63,255 nucleotides of DNA, filler included, from Collodictyon triciliatum (GCA_043381765.1; 4 parts of 4 records of this genome joined end to end with filler, not necessarily neighbours in it); one strand, 5' to 3'; positions 14,001-63,143 are shown, numbered from the whole stretch's first letter. Notes: generated from the sequence alone by a model not told the origin. Program-made: numbers and translations.

Positions 14001-15823
14001 CCAACATAAAATAAGCTATCCACGATTCTATCTGGTGACTATGACTTGAAGATTTCCCGACAAAATTACCACACTGAAAAACAAGATAAGGTATGACTAT
14101 GATATTTTAGCTTCATAATGGATTAATCTAGATATTGACTAACCAGAATGTCGGTCCGTGAATGAAAGGTAATAAATATGTTGATTGGACAACAAGCCAG
14201 ACACGTTCTATTTTCTTTGGCGATGCAACAAAGTGGTGGTCATATGCAAATGGTTCAAACTCTGGTCGAAAAAATATCTTCAGAGCTATCTTTGTATCAT
14301 GACTTTCATCAACAAAGAATGGTTTAAATTTTATATCAAGATTCCTATGCACAAAATTAGATTTACAATCTATAAATAATTGACTTTCAACTCTTTCATT
14401 TCTAGTTTCCCCTTTGCTTGACTTAAATTCCCAAAAAAAAATATCCTCATTTCAAGGAATACGTTTACTATTTTTACTTATTATTCCTTACATATTCGAA
14501 GTTTGTATATATAATGTGAATATGCTTCACAGATTGTTGGACAAAGAATTTCAGCTCCCAATCAACAACAGCAGCGTAAAACGATAGATTCTAAGGATTA
14601 TCTATCATACGCACTGCACACCATTCTTCACGGTCGTGTTGGTGGGATTGAATTTCCTTGCTCATCATAAATTAGTTTAACCATTAAAAAATGAATTATA
14701 TAATGTAAATAAAAAAGAATTCCTTTTTGTAAATATCTAGCTGGATGAATTAATCTCTTTTTTTTTATTTTACCAATTAAGCTGTTTCTGGTTTATGATT
14801 GATATCGTTTTTGTTTGCCATAGAATCGGACGTCCCATTCATTAGGCTGGATGCAGCATCAGCAAAATCTTCTCAGATTGGAGAGGAAATTCGCACTGTT
14901 GAGAGAAACCGCGGATTAATCCACTCTGAATTCGAAAGGATGGTTACCACGATGTATATATTTTTTTATTTTGATTTATTTTTAAAATAAAGAAAATATT
15001 GATTACCCTTGTTATTTTTATTTGCTTTTATATCAGAAATTGAGTTGTCATTTTAATTCATCCTACGTGCAAACAGCGAAGAATCAGTTTCATCACTCAG
15101 AAAAATGTATAACCAATGTGGTAAATCGTCTGACGGGCAATCACCTATTGAAGTTACTCTTTATGAAATTAATTGCATCAAAATCGACAACACAATAATG
15201 ATGATGATAATAATAATTTTGTTTTATATTGAAAGGAAGGGCCTCTTTCTCAAAGCTAAATAAATTTTTGTTTCTATTTTCTGTGTTACATTAAATATTA
15301 TTAGTATTGTTATTGTTATTGTTGTTATTATTATGATGATTATTATATCCTCGCACAGGAGCTCAAGAAGGAACATCAGAAGCTTTCGTCGAGCCTTGGC
15401 AGTCTCAGCGACGTACTCAACTCACTAATTGAAGAAAGAAGCTCCCTCCTTCAAGTATGTGCATCCAATTCGTTGCATGGTATCGCCATCATAACACTAC
15501 CTCCCTTCTGTAGGATATCCAGCGCTGGCCGAAGGAACAACGCGACGAACGCAAGCTCTATGTCCAATTCTTTCTTGCACCCGATCATCTCCGTGCCTCT
15601 GTCGGTGAACTAGAGCGAAGGGTTTGTTGAGAAAGTGTTCTCTCTTCTTTGTCTTTGTCTTTGTCTTTGTCTTTGTCTTTGTCTTTGTCTTTGTCTTTGT
15701 CTTTGTCTTTGTCTTTGTCTTTGTCTTTGTCTTTGTCTTTGTCTTTGTCAATCGGCTGCACATAGTTGTCTGACCGCAAGTCGTAAATAGGTTGCTGCGC
15801 TCAATCCGTCAAAAGCGCAGTAG
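11020..15823 (+). CDS. HAUS3: HAUS augmin-like complex subunit 3, multi-exon
   Basis: Spliced N-terminus LQSIG|FPTKIRGEQLEWVNDEPNLRVFLQSL..SQNSILS matches the HAUS3 pattern (LKKIGYP..GEDFDW..FLKWF..QNVLS). Also AYLQKQFHQ, ILSGDYDLKISRQNYH and the C-terminal ERKLYVQFF. Stop TAG at 15821-15823. Confidence 0.85.
11768..12137. repeat. (TTC)n / (TTCTAC)n microsatellite spanning an N gap, intronic in HAUS3
   Basis: Directly visible. Confidence 0.95.
15648..15748. repeat. (TTTGTC)n intronic microsatellite
   Basis: Directly visible in the last HAUS3 intron. Confidence 0.95.
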
Positions 15824-17548
15824 CAGATGGAGTAGCTGCACAATGAACAATTAAAAAAAAACAATACCCCTACCCATCCATAGATTTATGTTAAATCTGT
15901 ATCTTCATTCTATCCCATACATAAATTTGGTGAGTCTGTTTGTTTGTGCACATGTTCGCGCGAATGTAAATTTCCTGGGTTGATGGGAATTAAATGAAAA
16001 TACTAAATCTGTAATTTCCAAAGTCTAAATTCCAAATCTGTAAAATAAATGTAAACTTATATTCATCACACTGGGAGAGACTAAATTGATAGAAGCAACA
16101 TGAAAAAACGCAATTAATAAGAAAAAAATGTCCTTTGTTGAAAAATAACCCACTGAGAGAAAAAGGACACATTCTCTGGTAAATAATATCAACGCACTGG
16201 AGTTCTTTCCTTCTTTCTCCCAACCCCACCACGCTCTGAAGCCGGAGAAAAAAAAACAAAAAAACACACAAGCGATCGGAAAGAGCGATCCTGGGAAGGA
16301 CGAGACCGTCTACCAGGAGACCAACGCCACAGCCCTGCCCCATGGAACGCCCACTGACCGCACGCAAACCGAGAGGGCCGATGCAGCCAGTGCAGAGAGC
16401 GAAAAGGTCACTTTACTACATCCCTTGCAACACAGGTTATGCACCGAGACACACCGACGATCAAGACGCCAGCTGCCACCGACCCGTGAGTGCAACAAGC
16501 TAATAATAAGACAGAGCGAGCTCTTCGAATAAAGGAAAAAAAAAAAAAGACAGAGCGAGCTCTTTGAAAGAAAGAATAATAATGAAGGGAATAAAAAAAA
16601 AGGCTGAAAGGCTCAAGCCACCGACCCACGGGTAGCAAGATAAGTATGAATATATCACTTATCATAAGTTGCTCTGACTCGTTTATCTTCTCTTTTTTCT
16701 TTTTCTTCTTTTTCTTCTTTTTCTTCTTTTTCTTCTTTTTCTTCTTTTTCTTCTTTTTCTTTTCTCTTTTTCTCTTTTTCTCTTTTTCTCTTTTTCTCTT
16801 TTTCTCTTTTTCTCTTTTTCTCTTTTTCTCTTTTCCTCTTTTTTCTCTCCTTCGGTCTCATTCAGCCTGTAAATGGATAAACTTCATTACAAAGGATGTG
16901 AAGAACTTGGTTTTATCCCTTTCAAGGCACAACACTTTTTATGTGACGAAAGTCCAAGGCATATGGCAGTTTATTGCACATACAACCATGGAATTAAATC
17001 TGAGTTGAAGAAAGCAGGAGCTTTGATGAATCCAAGAAGGAACCTGAATAATACAACAGTATGATTAGTATATATAATATGGTTAAAAATACTTAATAAT
17101 CTCATTCTGTTGCTATAACCAATTTATATTTTATTTTTATATGTGTAATATCATTCAAATTGAAAGATTACAAACAAGCTGTTGCCTTGGCCCAGACAGA
17201 ACCCACCCTATAAACCTGCCACCAACATGAATTCCAAAAAAGCATACTATTCACACTTGCGGTGGTAATCATGTTGTTTGGGCCGATATGTTGACTTTCA
17301 GTCGCAATGGCCGTATGGCCGTCCTTTCGAACTCGCCGAATCAGCTCTCATCGTTTTGTCTCAAAATACTTATAAAAAACTATGTGAGTTTGTTTGCCGC
17401 AATGCGCACATTTTGAGAGTCTCGGTAGATGCTTAATTTTACCTGAATTGATTTTATGCATTTTATTTTTATTTATTTATTAAATTGACTGTTTTACTAA
17501 AGTTTTATTAAAATTGAAAACTCGGTAGTTTTCTAAAGGAAAAAGTAA

Positions 17549-19424
17549 AACAAAGACTTTCAGACTAAGAATAGAAAATGTCTTGAGTTTGAGAGTCTAA
17601 ACTCTGTAAAACCAGACTACCGAAATGTGAAAACGTCTCCAAAGTCGATTGTAAAGAATGCGGATGACTATTACAAAATCAACGATACGGTTTTATTGTG
17701 TCATTTTTGGTTACCGAGACTTGTCTGTTTGCAAGATGTTACATATTGAAATCACAAAACTCACAACAATCGATGAAATGATTATTCATTTATTTTTTTG
17801 TACGCTTTAAAGATAGTCGGAGTAGTTTCACAAGATAGACCCGCAAGATTAAAAAAAAAAAAAACAACCATTTACGAGTAAAGATATGATGACTTTTTAT
17901 CTCCATGATTTTCGATTCCTTTTGTCCCGAAAAGAACGCTTTCCGTTGGTTGGACTCTCTCATGTATCACCGTACTTGGCGAAGCAAATATTCACAGCTT
18001 ATCATAATAACATTAAGGGGCAATTTGTAAAGAGGCTAATGCGCTTTACAAATCAAACAGTTCCTAAAGATGAGAATACTATGGAAGCTATTAAAAAGGC
18101 AGAGTTACAAAAGTTAAAAAAGCCACCTTCGAGAAACTCCAAATACCAAAACAATATAAAGAATGGGATATAATGCATTTGCATCGTATCATTCCCAGCG
18201 GTATTGAAAAAGGTATCGAATTTGACGTCAAAGTCAATCCAAATAAGTACATTCCATGTCTGATTTACATGAAACACATTTTTGAGAACATTGTAGCCAA
18301 ACAGTTTCAACCAATCCCCATAAGAACTAATAATATACCATGCATATTACTCTAGATACTGCATGTTTGATAGGTCTATTAGTATCAACTGGAAAAAATT
18401 ATTACTGAAGAATATATCAGGATGCAAAGAGACACTATGGGATAAGTTCTTTGAAATGAAGAAGAGGGTTTTCATCAAACAGACTACAATTTTAAATACA
18501 TGATACAAACAGACGGGTTGGCAGTGTCATTATTGTTTGAAAAGAAAGGTATTACAAATTCAAAAATCCAAATATAACCAAAAAAACCAAGAATATGTTT
18601 ATATAGGTGAGCTTTCCGAAGAGCAGCTATCTTTATTAGCGACAAAAAAATAGTTGGAGTGGACGCAGGCAAGTTTAATTTTGTTTACATGGTGGATGAG
18701 ACAGGTAAGAAATACGCTACACGGCACACCAAAGAAGACATGATAGCGAATCTCTTAAAAATCACAAAATACTCTTGCGTGAGAAAGAAAGGTAGATGCT
18801 TCAGGGATATCTATGGCAACATATATTTACAAAGTGCTGTTTCTTTTGGTCACAGGACTTTTGAAGAGAATCAGCAGTTTGAGACATCAAGAGTATATTT
18901 AATCGATTTAGAGACATAACTGAGTAAACATAATTCATGCTCGGTCGATTATGAAAAATTTTTGAAAATGTGTATCTTTGAAATCAAGATACCAGATAGA
19001 ATTATCCAGATTTTATGTACAAGGAACTTTTCGAAAGATGAGATGGGACATTATGGAAATACGAAAAGAAGTGAACAATTGTTTATGGATCGAATTGTAA
19101 AGACATTTGGCAAGGATGTTGTACTGGTGTATGGAAACTGGAGCAGAAAATCTCGATGAAACATTTTATGCCAACAATTGGAAGGGGATTACAAAAAATA
19201 CTACTGAATCGTTTTGAAGCAATTATTGTAAATGAATTTGGAACCTCCAAGATGTGCTGTATCTGCGAAAAAGAACTGGAATATATGAAACTGAACGGAA
19301 ATTCAAGAAAAAAGTGTATATGTGTCACATATGTAAAGTATGCATTCGCTCAGAAAGCAAACAAAGTATATTCTTGACAAGGGACTTTAACAGCGCTAAT
19401 AATATACACAAGAAAGTTCTTTAA
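17549..19424 (+). pseudogene. Fanzor1 (TnpB/Cas12-family RNA-guided endonuclease), intronless, multiple frameshifts and stops
   Basis: Motifs in order across frames: VKTSPKSIVK..INDTV, YHNNIKGQF..RF.N, FQPIPIRTNNIP..ILLD, YMIQTDGLAVSLLF (~18500-18540), RuvC-I IVGVDAG (D 18662-18664), VLVYGNWS (~19120-19144), RuvC-II VNEFGTSK (E 19234-19236), Zn ribbon CCIC (19255-19266) and CKVC (19332-19343), RuvC-III TRDFNSANNI (D 19383-19385). Stop at 19422-19424. Confidence 0.9.
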
Positions 19425-19477
19425 AATTCTTCAAAAAAACAAAAAAACAAAAAAAAACATACGCCTCCTTAAAAAAT

Positions 19478-19598
19478 AGGCTGTTGGGTCATTCCTGGCA
19501 GCCTTCACCACTACACGATCTTTGTGAAAAAAGCGGTGAGACCTTGGATACTAGCGCTCCAGGTTTCACCAATCGAAAGATTGGTATGCCCCTTCTAG
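19478..19598 (+). ncRNA. Candidate Fanzor omegaRNA scaffold (guide would be the flank starting ~19599)
   Basis: Four consecutive hairpins: 19478-19504, 19505-19539, 19540-19565 and 19568-19585 (GAAA tetraloop). Loop TACTAG (19549-19554) is complementary to CTAGTA (19595-19600). Position is immediately 3' of the Fanzor ORF. Confidence 0.7.
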
Positions 19599-19699
19599 TA
19601 TATATAAACTATAAAATAATATAATAGGAGAAAACGAAAACGAAAGTGCAAATAAAAGAAGGCAGCTAGGCAAGGCAAGGCAAGTACAGTATATTGCAC

Positions 19700-21972
19700 A
19701 TGCGGCGGCTGCTCCTGGCGTGTCTCGCTGCTGGGCTTTTTGTTGTGGTGTCTTACAACATCCTCGGATCCGCCGAAAGTATGAAGCAGCCCACCCGACA
19801 TATCCTTCGCTGTGCGCATCGTGGCTTTCGCTCACGCGCACCCGAAAACACTCTCGTGTCATTTCAACAGGCACTCAAAGCCGGAGTTGACTGTCTCGAG
19901 TTGGATGTGGTTCTGACTGGTGATGGTATTGTTGCAGTGGCACATCCAAAGACCTTCGACGAGATTGTGAGGGCCTTTTTGTTTAGCACTTAAGCTCTAC
20001 TCATTCTCAAGTATCACTTTTTGGGTGTTTTTTCTTCTCAGTGAATACACGCTTCATATTTATTTATTCTTTATATGTTGTCTTGATGATTTATTTTTCA
20101 TCTTTATTCTTCATTAATACTTTAATATTAATTCTTTATATGGTCAGTTCGTGAACCCATCTATCTATTATGTATGTGAAAACCGAGAAGAGAAGCAGAG
20201 GAATGTATGGATACCAAGCTTTACCTCATAACTTGTTGCTGAGCTTGCTATAGGTGCTCGGACACTATCGTGTGAACGACTCGATTCATTTGATGGCGTA
20301 CGATGTCGCTCGCAAATACGACATGGGTCCACCATTTGACTGTAAAAAAGAGGCTTATTTGGACACACTGGAGAGAGTTATCAGCGCACTAACGGATAAA
20401 AAATCAAATCTGGATGTTGTTTTATTGATAGAGTTGAAACCTCGCACGGTGAGTTGGTTCATGTATTCTGTCTCTTATGTTCTCCTCTCTATCATTCATG
20501 CAATATCATATCTCCCACATAAATATGTATGTTGTTTTTAACGAAAATATCGTTGCGACTAAATGACCATTTTGCATCATATTTAAGTAGCGTACTTTTA
20601 TCTATTTTTTTTATTGGGCACGTTTTTGGCTCTAAAGACCTTGATTTGGCATTAATTTTAATCGCATTCATTTTGAATCGAATAAAGGGAAAATTGAATC
20701 GCATTCATCACATTTCATCATATTACGAGCAAAAGTTAAAAAAATTAAACGAACATGTATATTGTTTTTTAGGATTCTTCCGATGCTGAAAATCTTGTCG
20801 AAAAGGTTGTTCAGTCAATTCAAAGATTCAGTTGCTACAATCGTTGTTTCCTGTCTTCTTACGACCATTGTAAATTTTGAATGAATCGAATGAGTCGTAA
20901 ATAACACACTCTAATATCTTCTATTTGTAAAAAAAAAAAAAACCCCCATCACCCACTGGATAATATAATGAGATACTTTCTAAAATATATAGTTATTTAT
21001 TTCATGATTATTATGATTATTATGATTATTATGATTATTATGATTATTATGATTATGATGATTATGATGATTATGATGATTATGATGATTATGATTATTG
21101 TTATGCATTCAATATGTGCAAGATGGTGGGGTTTTGCGTTTAGTTATCTAGCCTTCTGCGAAATTTTCTAATTTATATCATCCCAGCTATGATACAAAAG
21201 GTCAAGGATTTGGATAGTAGAATTCATTGGGGTTACATTTTGGGCGACTATACAAATACCCCCTCAGAAGTTGTCAAGCTTTTAGACAAAGAATGCAGGT
21301 TAGAGAAATATTACCTCTTATATATATATAATTACTTCATCTGTTCAATATATTTTTTAAATAATTTTTTTTTGCTTTATTTTGTGGTCAATTCATTAAT
21401 CCTGACATACCCATCTTCATTTACTGAAGATGTGTTGGATATGAATTTTCCGCTTAAAATTGTTCCCTTCCACAAGAAATAATTAACAAATAAATAAATC
21501 ATACATGGCAGGAACGGATGCCCTTTTGATGCGATATTTATTCAATACAACCTCCTGGTTAGCAGTGTGGTCTGGAATCTACAAAAGCAGTGAGTGTAAA
21601 TAAATGCTTCAAAATGAAATGTACTTGTTTCAAATAACTTATCTATAAAGCCCGATGCTTTTATACTTAAACGTATGTGTTAAATGCAGCAACATTTGGA
21701 CGTTTACTTGGACAGCCGATGATGAAAATGTGATAAGAAACATAGCCACCATGGCAGTAGATGGTTTGTTGGGCTCTATATAGTCTCTTCCGGAATCTAT
21801 TAGTTGAAACCATCGTGTCATCCAATCTTTCCATGTTTTTTTTAACATCCCTTGCTGCTTTATTTATTCATCTTTCTGCCATCATGTATTCACGTCATAT
21901 TCCCTCTTTGGTACAGGTATTGTGTCTAATGACCCAGAGACTCTTGTTCGAGTTATCAATAGCGAGAAGTGA
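19700..21972 (+). CDS. Glycerophosphodiester phosphodiesterase (GDPD/UgpQ-like) with N-terminal hydrophobic segment, multi-exon
   Basis: CAHRG..APENTL..F..A..G.D.LELDV..T.DG...V.H, LLIELK, SSYDH, then AVDG|IVSNDP near the C-terminus. Stop TGA at 21970-21972. Confidence 0.92.
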
Positions 21973-58350: not shown

Positions 58351-61300
58351 ATGGCCTCTCGACTCGCAGACTTGGAGGAGCTGCAGAAAATCACACAGGA
58401 CAGCAACACCATTACCCTACAAAACCGCACAAAGTTAGATCTCAAGAAAAAATCGCTCTCCACCGTCCCTCGTGGAGTCTTTGAGCTCAGCGCTTTGCTC
58501 GAGTTGTACATCTATGAAAACACTTTGTCCTTACTTCCGCCAGATATCTCACTCTTGACGGCGCTATCTTACCTGCACATGAGCTGGAACGAGCTGTCCA
58601 GCTTGCCCCCGGAAATAGCTCACTTGATAAATCTCAAAGAGCTTTATGTTGACGGCAACAAACTCTCTTCACTGCCACCAGAAATATCGCGCTTCTCCAA
58701 TCTCCGTCAGCTCCACATCAATAACAACAAGCTATCATCGCTACCACCAGAAATATCCTGCTTGATTCGCCTAACATATCTTAGCATCTATGAAAACATG
58801 GTATAAATATACTTCTTCGTTATATAAACAGATGATCTTTTCATTCAAGCCACACAAAAATAATAACGATAGACTTTGTAGTTGGAAGAACTCCCGCCAC
58901 AAATCACCGCACTTTCAGAGTTGAGGGATCTTTGGATAAAATACTCCTCCTCTAAAATTATCACAGGAGCCCCTCGTGGAATCACACGCCTTCCTTGCTG
59001 GTCAAACACAAACAACGCCGACTATCATTATATACGTAACCTGACATTTTACGAAGTTCTGGTAGAGTTTTTCTTCTGTCCCAAAGGCATATAATTTATT
59101 TCCCAAACAATCATTAAGCTTTTTCATCTCTAAAATAAAATAAAAATAAAGGATCAAGGAACGCTACACACAGGCTGGGCACCGAACAAAAAGCAAATCC
59201 TTTATGAGTCTCTTAGCTTTCATGGGATGGGCATTTCCAGACTACCAACTAATTTGACCCGTTTGACTTGTCTGAAATATCTCAACATTAGCCACAACAA
59301 GGTATTCCAACATCATACTCAAAATCTACAAATAACAATAATATTAATATTAAATCGGAGGGTCAAAGCCGTTTTAAAAATAGGATAATTAAAAAGAAAA
59401 AATGACCATTTCACATATTTACCGACACAACTATATCGCTAAAGTTCAGTCCACTCTCTTGGCATATCTATGAACAAGGCTTTTATGAACAATGTGACAA
59501 TGTTATCAAAATGCCTGCTTATTCGAGTGATTAGCCCGAAAACAGCTCACATGAATTTTTTTTTTTTTTTTTTTTAAAATAAAAATAAATTATTCCTTTC
59601 CTTTCTTTTTTTTTTTTAATTTTTTTAATTATAAAACTTTATTTTNNNNNNNNNNNNNNNNNNNNNNNNNNNNNNNNNNNNNNNNNNNNNNNNNNNNNNN
59701 NNNNNNNNNNNNNNNNNNNNNNNNNNNNNNNNNNNNNNNNNNNNNTTATTTATATTTCTTCTTTTTTTATTTATTAACAAAAAAAAAAAAAACATAAATT
59801 TTTTTTTTTTTTTTTTTTTTTTTTACAATCAAACATAGATCATACCGTACCCTCCGTGGCTCGGTAGCATGACTTCAATTACAAAGCTGAATGTCTCACG
59901 ATGCGAGGTAAACTCTCTTCTCTTAACTCCTACTACAAGCCAAAAAAAAAAATTAGAAAATTATCTCATTCCTCCCCATTTATATTATTTTTTCATGTAT
60001 TATTTGGAATCGAGAAATGGTGATATTGGTCTCTAATGTTCATTTAGTTTAATGAAAAAGATATTTATTTCCCTCATCGTAAACAAAGTAAAGAATTTTC
60101 AACACATCTCGTATGTGAAATAAAAGAAGAAAAATCAAAGAAAAAGTAATATTCTAACGTCGTGGAAAAAAAACAATAGCTAAGCAGAATACCAGATGTA
60201 ATTGCAAACTTGAAAAATCTTGAAGTGTTGGATTTTTCATACAATAAGGTGGATTTTTTTTTTGTTATAAACTCATAAAATTTCTTCTTTTTTAAAATAA
60301 TAAAACCTATTAGTTCCCATATTAATCCACTTTCATTCATATGCATTGTTTGAATATACGCAAGATACAAGAGATACCATCATTCCTTTCAAGTATGAAG
60401 AGTTTGAGAATCGGACTCTATTTTGAGGGAAACCCCATCCTGAATGTCCCAGCAAATGTGCTTCAGAGAGGCTCAGGAGGTGTATTCGACTACGTTGTAT
60501 CTTTTAGTGAAATGATTCTTAACAAGGAAGGGCGCATTCTATTGCTTGGTGAAGGTGAAGCAGGGAAAACGACGCTACGAATGTCCTTGAAGCAGAGTAA
60601 ACCCGAATCATCACAGAAATTCTCTTCAACAGTAGACCCTGCGCAGAAAAGAACTGACGGTATTGAGATTGAGGAGCAAATTATCCATTTAAATTACAGA
60701 GAGCCCTTTATCGATGCCAAGCTATGGGATTTTGGCGGTCAAGACATTTTTCATGCAACACATTCATTTTTCTTGTCTGGTAATGCATTAACATTGATAA
60801 TCTACAAGATGACTGAGCAGCCACATCTAGAAAGTGTGTCCCAATGGCTCAACATGATTTCATGCTTCTGTTCACAAGCTAGTGTGGTAATTGTGGGTAC
60901 ACACCTGGATAAGTTTACAACCCTGGAAGAGAAAAGCCGTGTATCCACTAACTGTAGGATTGCTTACCAAAAAATGAAAGCCTCGAATTACTTCAGATCT
61001 AAAATAATGTTTTGTGGGCACTTCGTGACAAGTAACAAAACAGGGGAGGGGATATTTGAACTCAAAGAACACATTTACCATGAGTTGGTGAAATTGCCCA
61101 ATGTTGGGAAGCAAATACCAAAAAAATACAACCAGCTGAAGGATATATTGATGAATTGGAGACAAAGTCATCTATCAGTCTCCGTTGATGATGCACTCGA
61201 CGCTGGCAAAAAATTCCAACTTGAAACTGAATCTGGGAAATCAGCTCTCCGATTCCTTTCGGATCTCGGCATCATAGTCTGGAATGAAAAGGGAGAAAAA

Positions 61301-63143
61301 ATCGCCGACACAGTTTTCCTCCAGCCAGAAATGCTAATATCTTGTTTCCGTGAGGTTTTTAACCTCGAAGTTGTCACGAACACTCAATCCACTATAACGG
61401 CTGACAAACCTACAATCAGAGGCGTTTATGAAGAAAAGGAACTAGAGAAAGCGTTGGTGAAGTGTATTTCATCAAAATTTTTATCAATACTACCTTCATC
61501 GATGCCATTATGCACGAAGAAAGTGATGAAGCTTTTTTGTGATTATAAACTTGCATATTATATTGGAAAGACAAGAATAATATTTCCAATTCTTGTTGAT
61601 GATGAAGAACCTTACGGTATATGGGTTTCAGATTTTGTGAAAGTAAAGGAAGCTGTTCATTATATGATTGAATATGCCCATGAAATTCCCAAAAATGATG
61701 TTAGCCACATAATTAGTGATATTGTAGCAAAGCTGAGTAGCTCCTCTAAAATATTGCCAAAGGGGTTATTTCTTAGCAAGCAACGTATGATATTTCCGTT
61801 TTCGTTGATTGATATCCCTGAACGTGCGATGGTGATGAGCGAAAAAAGCGATTATGTCGCATTTATACATTTTGTCTCCAAATTATCTCCTCAGGTATGT
61901 TTGATAAATAAACATAAGGCTTATTAAACTTATTACTGACCACTCAAAATACCCTATATTAAAAAAAATCACGCATAGGAAAATACACATCAACTCAAAG
62001 ATGTTAAATTGCCGAGAACACAAAAAATCATCATAATAGTGAAAACTGTAAATGAAAACGGATGTACACTAAAAGCTTTGGAATACATCGCAGATAAAAT
62101 GATTAAATCTAAGATCAAGACTAGAATTCAGAATGAAGGAATCATGTGCCCAAAGTGCATCGAGGCTTACCAAGAAAAAAACAGAGTAGTTGAATATAGA
62201 TTCTTACTTTGGCCAGAATTCACAGGTACTATTGAGCCAGGTCTCTTAACTGTCAAAACGGAAGCAGGAACACCGCACAAAAGCCACATTTTACCCTCTA
62301 TTCTTGAAAGATGGAGTCCATTTCATTTAAGTGTTCGATGCAACAAAATTAAATCAGTACATGAGATTAAACAGGCTGAATATATGGGATTGAGACTTCC
62401 TACCAATACTCTACGTTTGCATTATGCTGGGACAAAACATTCGAATGATAATAAGATTGAGCAAGGAACGAAAGAGATTAGGATTTTTATTGCATCAACA
62501 TTCCAGGATATGAAAAAAGTTCGGGAAAGCTTTTGCAGATTTGCACAGCCTTGGTAAATAAAATCATTGGGAAAAATCTGTCGTATATACTTAATTTTGA
62601 AATTGATATATAACACGCATAATAAAAATAGCTTCATATTAGCATCATAAGTGCGGCCCAGAAGCGAAGAATTACTGTCAGATTTATCGATTTGAGATGG
62701 GGTGTTTTATCTAAGGAGGCAGAGAATGGAGATGTATCATCTGTTTATTTCAATTTATTTTTGCATACCACACAAATATAAAGAGGCATAACCTACATCT
62801 CATTTAATGAAAAAGTCCAATATACTTACATTTATCCATCTATTCAATTTATAAATTATATAATAATTATTGAATCTTACAACAGACAACTCTCCAGTGT
62901 TTGCAAGGAGTCCGAAGTTCAAAGTACTTTGTCTGTTTCCTGGGTTCGAGGTTTGAAAGAGTTCTTTTTCGACATAAAATATAATAATTTTTGTGGCTCT
63001 TTTAAACAATCTCGTGTGCATCAAATTATAGGTACGGATGGGTCCCTGATAGGAATAATTCTAATGAATGGAATAAGAGTCTAGAGAATGGCGATTTCGG
63101 TTGGGTGAAAGGGTATCGAGAAGCTAGTGTCACGGAGCTCGAG
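58351..63143 (+). CDS. Roco protein: LRR - ROC GTPase - COR - DUF4062; continues beyond the window
   Basis: 23-aa LRRs (LSSLPPEI..L..L..L.L..N). ROC motifs GEGEAGKTT, RTDGIEI, WDFGGQ..F...H.FF, VGTHLD, SNKTGEGI. COR motifs IPKKY..L, ALRFLSDLG, VFLQP. DUF4062 motifs RIFIASTFQDM, RFIDLRWGV, FVCFLGSR|YGWVP, SVTELE. Confidence 0.92.

Follow-up and report, generated by a model that had tools for sequence, protein, structure and literature searches.

The Fanzor1 locus

The stretch analysed here, 63,255 nucleotides (nt) of Collodictyon triciliatum DNA (GCA_043381765.1; four parts joined end to end with filler) and referred to below as the window, carries the broken remains of a gene for a Fanzor1 nuclease, set within a repeated unit that ends shortly before a host gene with a GDPD domain. 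Judged from its sequence, 17567-19424 is a decayed copy of Fanzor1, a family of RNA-guided RuvC endonucleases derived from TnpB. It has no long open reading frame (ORF): the plus strand of 17549-19424 is a series of open pieces over the three forward frames, in which 17549 is just the first codon after a stop and homology starts at ~17567. The motifs listed by the initial annotation, which had been made from the sequence alone, were all found where it had placed them (Table 1); as it had also stated, no single ORF holds them. In the plus-strand translations they are spread over three different frames.

The homology, which goes far beyond chance, was established from pieces. A search of 1.84 billion cluster representatives with a 100-residue piece translated from 19075-19377 returned 78 proteins at E<=1e-3 (best match E 2.5e-12, 51% identity), and when all 78 were put back on the window by tblastn, the full-length ones aligned in successive frames. 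P0010, an intact relative of 634 residues used as the main guide protein, gave three frame-shifted tblastn pieces (summed E 1e-46) that run from 17612 to 19421 and cover its residues 18-593; in a frameshift-aware alignment its residues 2-593 extend over 17567-19421, and 252 of the 632 columns are identical. The profile of an alignment of 11 intact relatives (A1) matched the window in 13 pieces, strictly colinear, over profile positions 10-579. A read-through of the window copy, with X at each break, matched the loci of all 160 relatives fetched, the best of them with 38.8% identity over residues 7-620 and an E of 2e-132, calculated for this set of 160 loci; intact relatives of 590-640 residues are colinear with the window copy at 39-43% identity.

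The family was named Fanzor1 because the A1 profile matches Fanzor1 structures solely and because a piece of the window itself reaches one of them. Among solved structures the profile retrieved 9cf0 (8e-71), 8gkh (1e-67) and 9cer (4e-51), all of them Fanzor1; the next match was LaTranC at E 0.035, and chains of Fanzor2 or TnpB were absent from this search even at E<=10. P0010 likewise matched the Fanzor1 of Spizellomyces punctatus (SpuFz1, 8gkh; E 9e-37, residues 14-607), that of Parasitella (9cf0, 7e-34) and that of Guillardia (9cer, 7e-16). The piece 19075-19377 matched Parasitella Fanzor1 9cf0, and no other structure, directly over the Glu-TS-CxxC stretch at E 0.0055. Three of the five window pieces searched singly against the PDB gave nothing convincing, and Pfam on single pieces returned only PF07282 (Cas12f1-like_TNB) at E 0.0084, a weak match under the curated cut-off. 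The initial annotation's identification of a decayed Fanzor1 stands.

The catalytic layout agrees with this assignment. The superfamily motif of Bao and Jurka, D-X(125,275)-[TS][TS]-X-X-[C4 zinc finger]-X(5,50)-RD (PMC3627910), is present in the window copy as the Asp of 18662-18664, TS at 19243-19248, the CxxC pairs and RD at 19380-19385, with spacings of ~194 and ~15 codons. G500 and E536 of SPu-1-1p are described as extremely conserved in Fanzor1 (PMC3627910); through the P0010/SpuFz1 alignment they correspond to the window Gly at 19133-19135 and Glu at 19234-19236, the matching SpuFz1 motifs being GDWS and DEYKTS. Jiang et al. described such a site as rearranged, an inert Gly or Pro occupying the position of the RuvC-II Glu of most TnpBs and a compensating Glu lying downstream (PMC10530073), and the equivalence of the Fanzor1 Gly with that TnpB column is taken from PMC10530073 and PMC3627910. 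Of the 42 family-invariant columns of A1, 38 are kept in the window copy, among them D372, G496, E530 and D581 (P0010 numbering) and the four Cys, while three carry substitutions and a break interrupts the remaining one. The claim that the Asp/Glu/Asp triad persists despite the broken frames was therefore borne out by the alignment to P0010 and the invariant columns of A1.

Table 1. Features of the repeated unit and its Fanzor1 pseudogene (window coordinates; X1 is a public sequencing run described in the text)
Feature	Position	Strand	Evidence or remark
5' part of repeated unit	16860..17566	.	Other copies cover 16896-17653
ATG-started 63-codon ORF	16873-17061	+	Inside repeated unit; GTATGA donor-like site directly after
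Fanzor1 pseudogene, ~620 codons	17567..19424	+	tblastn, frameshift-aware alignments, colinear profile matches
TDG	18509-18517	+	Family-invariant; T318 D319 G320 of P0010
RuvC-I catalytic Asp in GVDAG	18662-18664	+	Aligned to invariant D372 of P0010
Candidate GT..AG intron or lineage-specific insert, 64 nt	18791..18854	+	Sequence and alignment gap
In-frame TAA stop inside pseudogene	18917..18919	+	On alignment path in 10 of 14 runs
GNWS	19133-19144	+	Gly aligned to invariant G496 of P0010; Fanzor1-typical Gly
Alternative ("rearranged") catalytic Glu in VNEFGTS	19234-19236	+	Aligned to invariant E530 of P0010
C4 zinc ribbon	CxxC 19255-19266 and CxxC 19323-19334	+	Frame break near 19303 between the pairs
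RuvC-III catalytic Asp in RDFNSANNI	19383-19385	+	Aligned to invariant D581 of P0010
Terminal TAA stop	19422-19424	+	End of pseudogene
3' non-coding tail, 175 nt, candidate omega/fRNA scaffold	19425..19600	+	Fold and depth drop
One-base indel site	17705		100% of X1 depth differs from window (4/4 contigs)
One-base indel site	18469		52% of X1 depth differs from window
One-base indel site	18562		22% of X1 depth differs from window
One-base indel site	18712		42% of X1 depth differs from window
One-base indel site	19046		69% of X1 depth differs from window
One-base indel site	19153		52% of X1 depth differs from window

A diverged multi-copy element

Four public runs were placed on 16800-20100, and since at most 13% of the words sampled from the stretch occur in any one run, none of them is likely to be the source sample. 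No RNA run was found for the stretch. Run X1 supplied 423 contigs at 85-99% likeness (40 at >=99%, 83 at 95-99%, 190 at 90-95% and 110 below 90%), and three freshwater or lake metagenome runs supplied 6, 150 and 14 contigs. The summed depth in X1 lies at 78-331 in most bins of 16800-19574, dips to 34 in the bin 17355-17465, and is 16-23 from 19575 on. The host flank at 19626-20100 is covered by a single X1 contig of 1343 nt with five differences and no gap. X1 is tentatively labelled as RNA, but this contig runs unspliced through the likely first GDPD intron, so that the run is treated as DNA, from the same species or a close relative of it. Owing to the 423 diverged contigs and a depth far above that of the host flank (23), the window segment ~16860-19600 is recognised as one copy of a diverged multi-copy DNA element. 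That other family members exist, as the initial annotation had supposed, is borne out by these contigs and by one-base indel differences at six break sites.

Coverage by other copies begins at 16896 or earlier (18 contigs) and continues to ~19600, and individual contigs bridge 16966-17137, 17182-17536 and 17236-17653. The right end at ~19600 is marked by the drop in depth, by diverging loose ends and by a host-flank contig that ends ~21 nt short of 19626. One other copy or more lacks an AT-rich segment of 177 nt at 17351-17527 (joint 17350/17528), over which the X1 depth falls from ~316 to 34; the segment is an insertion/deletion polymorphism among element copies.

The 5' region (16860-17566) shows no similarity to the relatives' loci, and no Pfam domains were found in its ORFs. 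The 63-codon ORF there (Table 1) has no Pfam hit, no sequence homologue and no convincing atlas match (best 0.90, with low recognition), and could be the first exon of an element gene, or noise. A 12-nt direct repeat (17066-17077 and 19596-19607), one arm in this 5' part and the other near the right end, was considered as a target duplication and rejected, given a contig of another run that spans 16966-17137 and the AT-rich low complexity of the repeat; it is probably a chance occurrence.

The search for further copies and close relatives had a consistent outcome. Within the 63,255 nt there is no second copy, blastn of the element finding only itself, and the best tblastn match outside 17400-19500 has E 0.002 and 23% identity. 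An intact close relative was not found in the 90%-cluster protein collection (longer proteins, searched with two pieces), nor was a close relative found on metagenome contigs (341 pattern matches, none confirmed) or on viral contigs (14 and 12 pattern matches, none confirmed).

Decay of the copy

The alignment guided by P0010 contains 15 frame breaks, a single base being missing at ten of them and added at the other five, together with two in-frame stops. Robustness was assessed with 14 alignment runs, in which seven guide proteins were combined with two frameshift penalties, and every run contained between 9 and 16 breaks and one stop or more. The break near 19154 appeared in all 14 runs, that near 18341 in 13 and that near 19047 in 12; a single base is missing at each of the ten breaks that recurred most often. 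The many frameshifts reported by the initial annotation are thus confirmed. The stop at 18917 recurs in most runs (Table 1), while the second, at 18793, depends on the path chosen. An in-frame ATG was not found, and because the first open piece (17549-17749) is without Met, the start codon is gone or displaced. With some 15 single-base breaks, at least one stop and its start codon lost or displaced, the copy is dead and unable to encode a Fanzor1 protein. The level of decay is coherent, in that other copies differ by 5-15% and three to four of the 42 invariant residues are lost.

The gene had been called intronless, a claim that is almost, if not strictly, borne out. Apart from the 64-nt GT..AG segment at 18791-18854, it is colinear with intron-free relatives; with that segment excised, the frames on its two sides are in phase. 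An intron is disfavoured by other copies, whose loose ends at 18786 lack the GT, and the segment may be an insert rather than an intron. The GT..AG joints 18546/18638 and 18702/18910 were also considered as introns and rejected, each resting on a single contig and each removing conserved codons.

Relatives and their viral setting

Searches with A1 retrieved at least 563 confirmed relatives among 599 pattern matches on metagenome contigs and at least 488 among 597 in a viral collection, 80 being retained from each. Many of the relatives from the viral collection lie on contigs with GVMAG (giant-virus metagenome-assembled genome) in the name. An intact ORF of >=400 residues is present at 78 of the 80 metagenome loci retained, with a median length of 622 residues. 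Dense, intron-free contigs of up to 255 kilobases (kb), with genes for ribonucleotide reductase, XPG and DUF5755 proteins, carry all of the nearest intact relatives retrieved; around the Fanzor of two long contigs, the small chain of ribonucleotide reductase, an XPG nuclease, a DUF5755 protein and a glycosyltransferase are encoded. On these two contigs a DDE_3+HTH transposase lies just upstream of the Fanzor on the opposite strand, and such a transposase is present at 16 of the 80 metagenome loci.

At three of the relatives' loci (L001:173-3508, L002:2635-5953 and L003:2629-5954) a Tc1/mariner-type element of 3.3 kb was delimited, with terminal inverted repeats (TIRs) of 33-37 bp, an intact Fanzor1 of 634 residues and, on the opposite strand, the DDE_3+HTH transposase. 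The three copies, on three different giant-virus-like metagenome contigs, are 73-80% identical, which marks the element as recently mobile between viral genomes. Its Fanzor stop codon lies only ~47 nt from the right end. The pairing of Tc1/mariner and Fanzor1 is known from algal giant viruses (PMC3627910, PMC10530073). In a FastTree phylogeny of 111 rows, comprising the window read-through and relatives, the read-through formed a long branch (1.07) sister to the P0010/L001-L007 clade with support of 89, a placement that is unsure for so long a branch, and its highest identity within the set was 43%.

The 3' tail as a candidate guide RNA

Between the pseudogene and the right end lies a non-coding tail of 175 nt. 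Positions 19460-19602 are predicted to fold into three hairpins at -43.1 kcal/mol, the hairpins lying in 19478-19586, and the fold has a z-score of -2.78 on the plus strand (three of 200 shuffles as good) versus -1.50 on the minus strand. Rfam returned no match to the tail at the gathering score or at E<=1. In the Fanzors studied, the guide RNA originates in the 3' non-coding region, next to the transposon's right end, and extends into the flank (PMC10530073, PMC10432273), and by analogy with PMC10530073 the tail could be a guide-RNA scaffold. The nuclease of an intact element would bind a structured RNA derived from the element's 3' end, the 3' extension of which would read the adjoining DNA; cleavage of matching DNA by the protein would support the persistence or spread of the element.

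Weighing the interpretation

It is held with high confidence that ~16860-19600 is a dead copy of a multi-copy element whose only recognisable gene is the Fanzor1 of 17567-19424, and the decay pattern fits the ordinary neutral decay of an old transposon copy ~100 nt upstream of GDPD. Several points nevertheless weigh against this interpretation or parts of it. The left end lies at or beyond a (CTTTTT)n array that ends near 16860. No TIRs were found between the right end and 14000-17600, no target-site duplication was found, and the search for a transposase relic with the relatives' DDE_3 gave a best E of 3.5 in the window; because none of these features was found and the left end is undefined, it is the copy number and the relatives that justify the label "transposon". 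Contig depth does not equal copy number. The tail is no more than a candidate guide-RNA scaffold. With no intact close member seen, the family could be entirely extinct, and the break at 17705, taken alone, could be an assembly error.

That last point touches a broader alternative, in which the organism itself has an intact gene and the breaks arose as consensus errors when a repeated region was assembled. The prevalence of single missing bases among the most reproducible breaks accords with it, as do the proximity of eight of the 15 breaks (within 10 nt) to a run of >=4 identical bases, the one additional base carried at 17705 by all four X1 contigs there, and the 764 N in the repeat gaps of the window. 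It is, however, highly improbable. Among the best 12 of 80 indel entries, six lie at or within 5 nt of break sites, and other copies hold one base more or fewer than the window at these six sites, so that the six breaks are not common to the whole family; at 18469, 18562, 18712, 19046 and 19153 just 22-69% of the X1 depth differs, the rest sharing the window's state, which an independent run thereby also contains at five of the six. The breaks are not general assembly noise, because host ORFs of comparable homopolymer density are unbroken (1602 nt in Roc-COR and 1233 nt in another), because only eight of the 15 breaks lie near homopolymers and seven do not, and because the window state is shared in X1; moreover, the stop at 18917 and the lost start codon are not indels. 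Even less credence is given to a locus that is still functional, whether as a spliced or recoded gene or as a donor of guide RNA serving intact copies in trans. Such a role would draw on the 64-nt GT..AG segment, which would join two frames in phase, on a tail that folds better than shuffled sequence, and on the extra stand-alone fRNA copies reported from Chlamydomonas (PMC10530073), but the other ~14 breaks are single-base shifts without an intron-sized insert, the fold statistic is modest, with three of 200 shuffles folding as well, and the tail depth in X1 is no higher than that of the ORF.

The origin of the stretch could also be sought in an integrated giant-virus genome rather than in a transposon family resident in the host, given that the nearest intact relatives are all found on the dense, intron-free contigs mentioned above, that at least 488 relatives occur in the viral collection, many on GVMAG contigs, and that virus-borne Fanzor1 elements and virus-integrated copies have been described (PMC3627910). 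This is considered very unlikely: identity to the viral relatives is only 39-43%, no close relative was found on viral contigs, viral genes are absent at the flanks, where the neighbours are host genes with introns, and the hundreds of diverged X1 contigs indicate that the element has multiplied inside a cellular genome. The preferred account of ~16860-19600 is therefore that of one dead copy from a host-resident, multi-copy family.

Host context and significance

The host flanks contain genes of the GDPD, GAF-PDE and LRR-Roc-COR kinds, in which short gaps divide the Pfam domains between ORFs. At ~19600 the element's right end is only ~100 nt upstream of the GDPD start codon (first exon ~19702-19975), and the adjoining element is likely to sit in the promoter or 5' untranslated region. 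Farther along the plus strand lie a GAF-domain cyclic-nucleotide phosphodiesterase gene (46079-48649), the PDEase domain of which is split by an intron of ~100 nt (48134-48232), and an LRR-Roc-COR gene for a ROCO-type GTPase (58114-62557). Transfer RNA and Rfam scans of the window gave no hits that contradict a eukaryotic setting, and from its sequence surroundings the window copy is taken to be encoded in a eukaryotic genome. Microsatellite arrays of (CTTTTT)n, (CTT)n and other types occur at 16655-16860, 11790-12100, 54400-54700 and 58114-58170; several are broken by runs of N, of which the window has 764 in all, and such N-filled simple repeats suggest a short-read scaffolded assembly with gaps.

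Fanzors are eukaryotic RNA-guided nucleases that are being developed as compact genome editors, and divergent lineages may supply guide scaffolds and target-motif preferences. The initial annotation had raised the prospect of a new eukaryotic programmable nuclease, which is not shown; this copy is dead and belongs to a widespread, well-described family. By itself it adds little beyond pointing to a diverged Fanzor1 family that has many copies in a freshwater eukaryote. It is doubtful, though worth some consideration, that the host genome or freshwater relatives still hold intact, active members of this Fanzor1 lineage. If true, this would imply a new Fanzor1 subfamily with a guide scaffold of its own and an unclassified vehicle, namely a carrier without a DDE transposase, with a 5' module of ~700 nt and with a guide tail of 175 nt after the ORF versus ~47 nt in the virus-borne relatives. 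The relatives on Tc1/mariner elements in giant-virus genomes fit the published idea of viruses ferrying Fanzors between eukaryotes. For genome annotation, the ~2.7-kb stretch upstream of GDPD is best masked as a transposon relic and not handled as promoter sequence.

Comparison with known systems

Bacterial TnpB of the IS200/IS605 elements, exemplified by ISDra2, represents the ancestor family, with a split RuvC domain, a zinc ribbon and a guide RNA from the 3' end (PMC10432273, PMC10530073). Most TnpBs keep the RuvC-II Glu, whereas the window copy has Gly at this position (by the rule given in PMC10530073) and its setting is eukaryotic. SpuFz1, which is carried by the SPu-1 element (8gkh), and Parasitella Fz1 (9cf0) belong to the same family and the same ~630-residue class, with the same Asp/Gly...Glu/C4/Asp layout; the window copy, in contrast to both, is a pseudogene. 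SPu-1 itself is ~2.1 kb long with TIRs of 33 bp and TA duplications (PMC3627910), whereas the window unit is at least 2.7 kb, has no TIR that could be found and carries the 175-nt tail.

The nearest intact proteins, with the same motifs, come from Tc1/mariner-Fanzor1 elements of the PGv-1 type (Bao and Jurka 2013; here L001-L003 and L025). These elements are ~3.3 kb long, with TIRs of 33-37 bp, a divergent DDE_3+HTH transposase and a tail of ~47 nt after the stop, and the window differs from them in the lack of any DDE_3 trace (E 3.5), in its long 3' tail and in an unrelated 5' stretch of 700 nt.

A close parallel from a different organism and lineage, likened here by published description, is CMe-1A of Cyanidioschyzon merolae (PMC3627910), an old Fanzor1 family of ~3 kb that is multi-copy and, like the window unit, without TIRs. 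Its copies are strongly diverged, its transposon class is unknown and some copies are intact, whereas none has been seen intact here. By that description the two closely resemble each other as old, ~3-kb, multi-copy elements with a decayed nuclease gene and no TIRs, and the window copy is, by sequence comparison, of a known kind, while its lineage is distinct in sequence, at <=43% identity to any intact protein retrieved.

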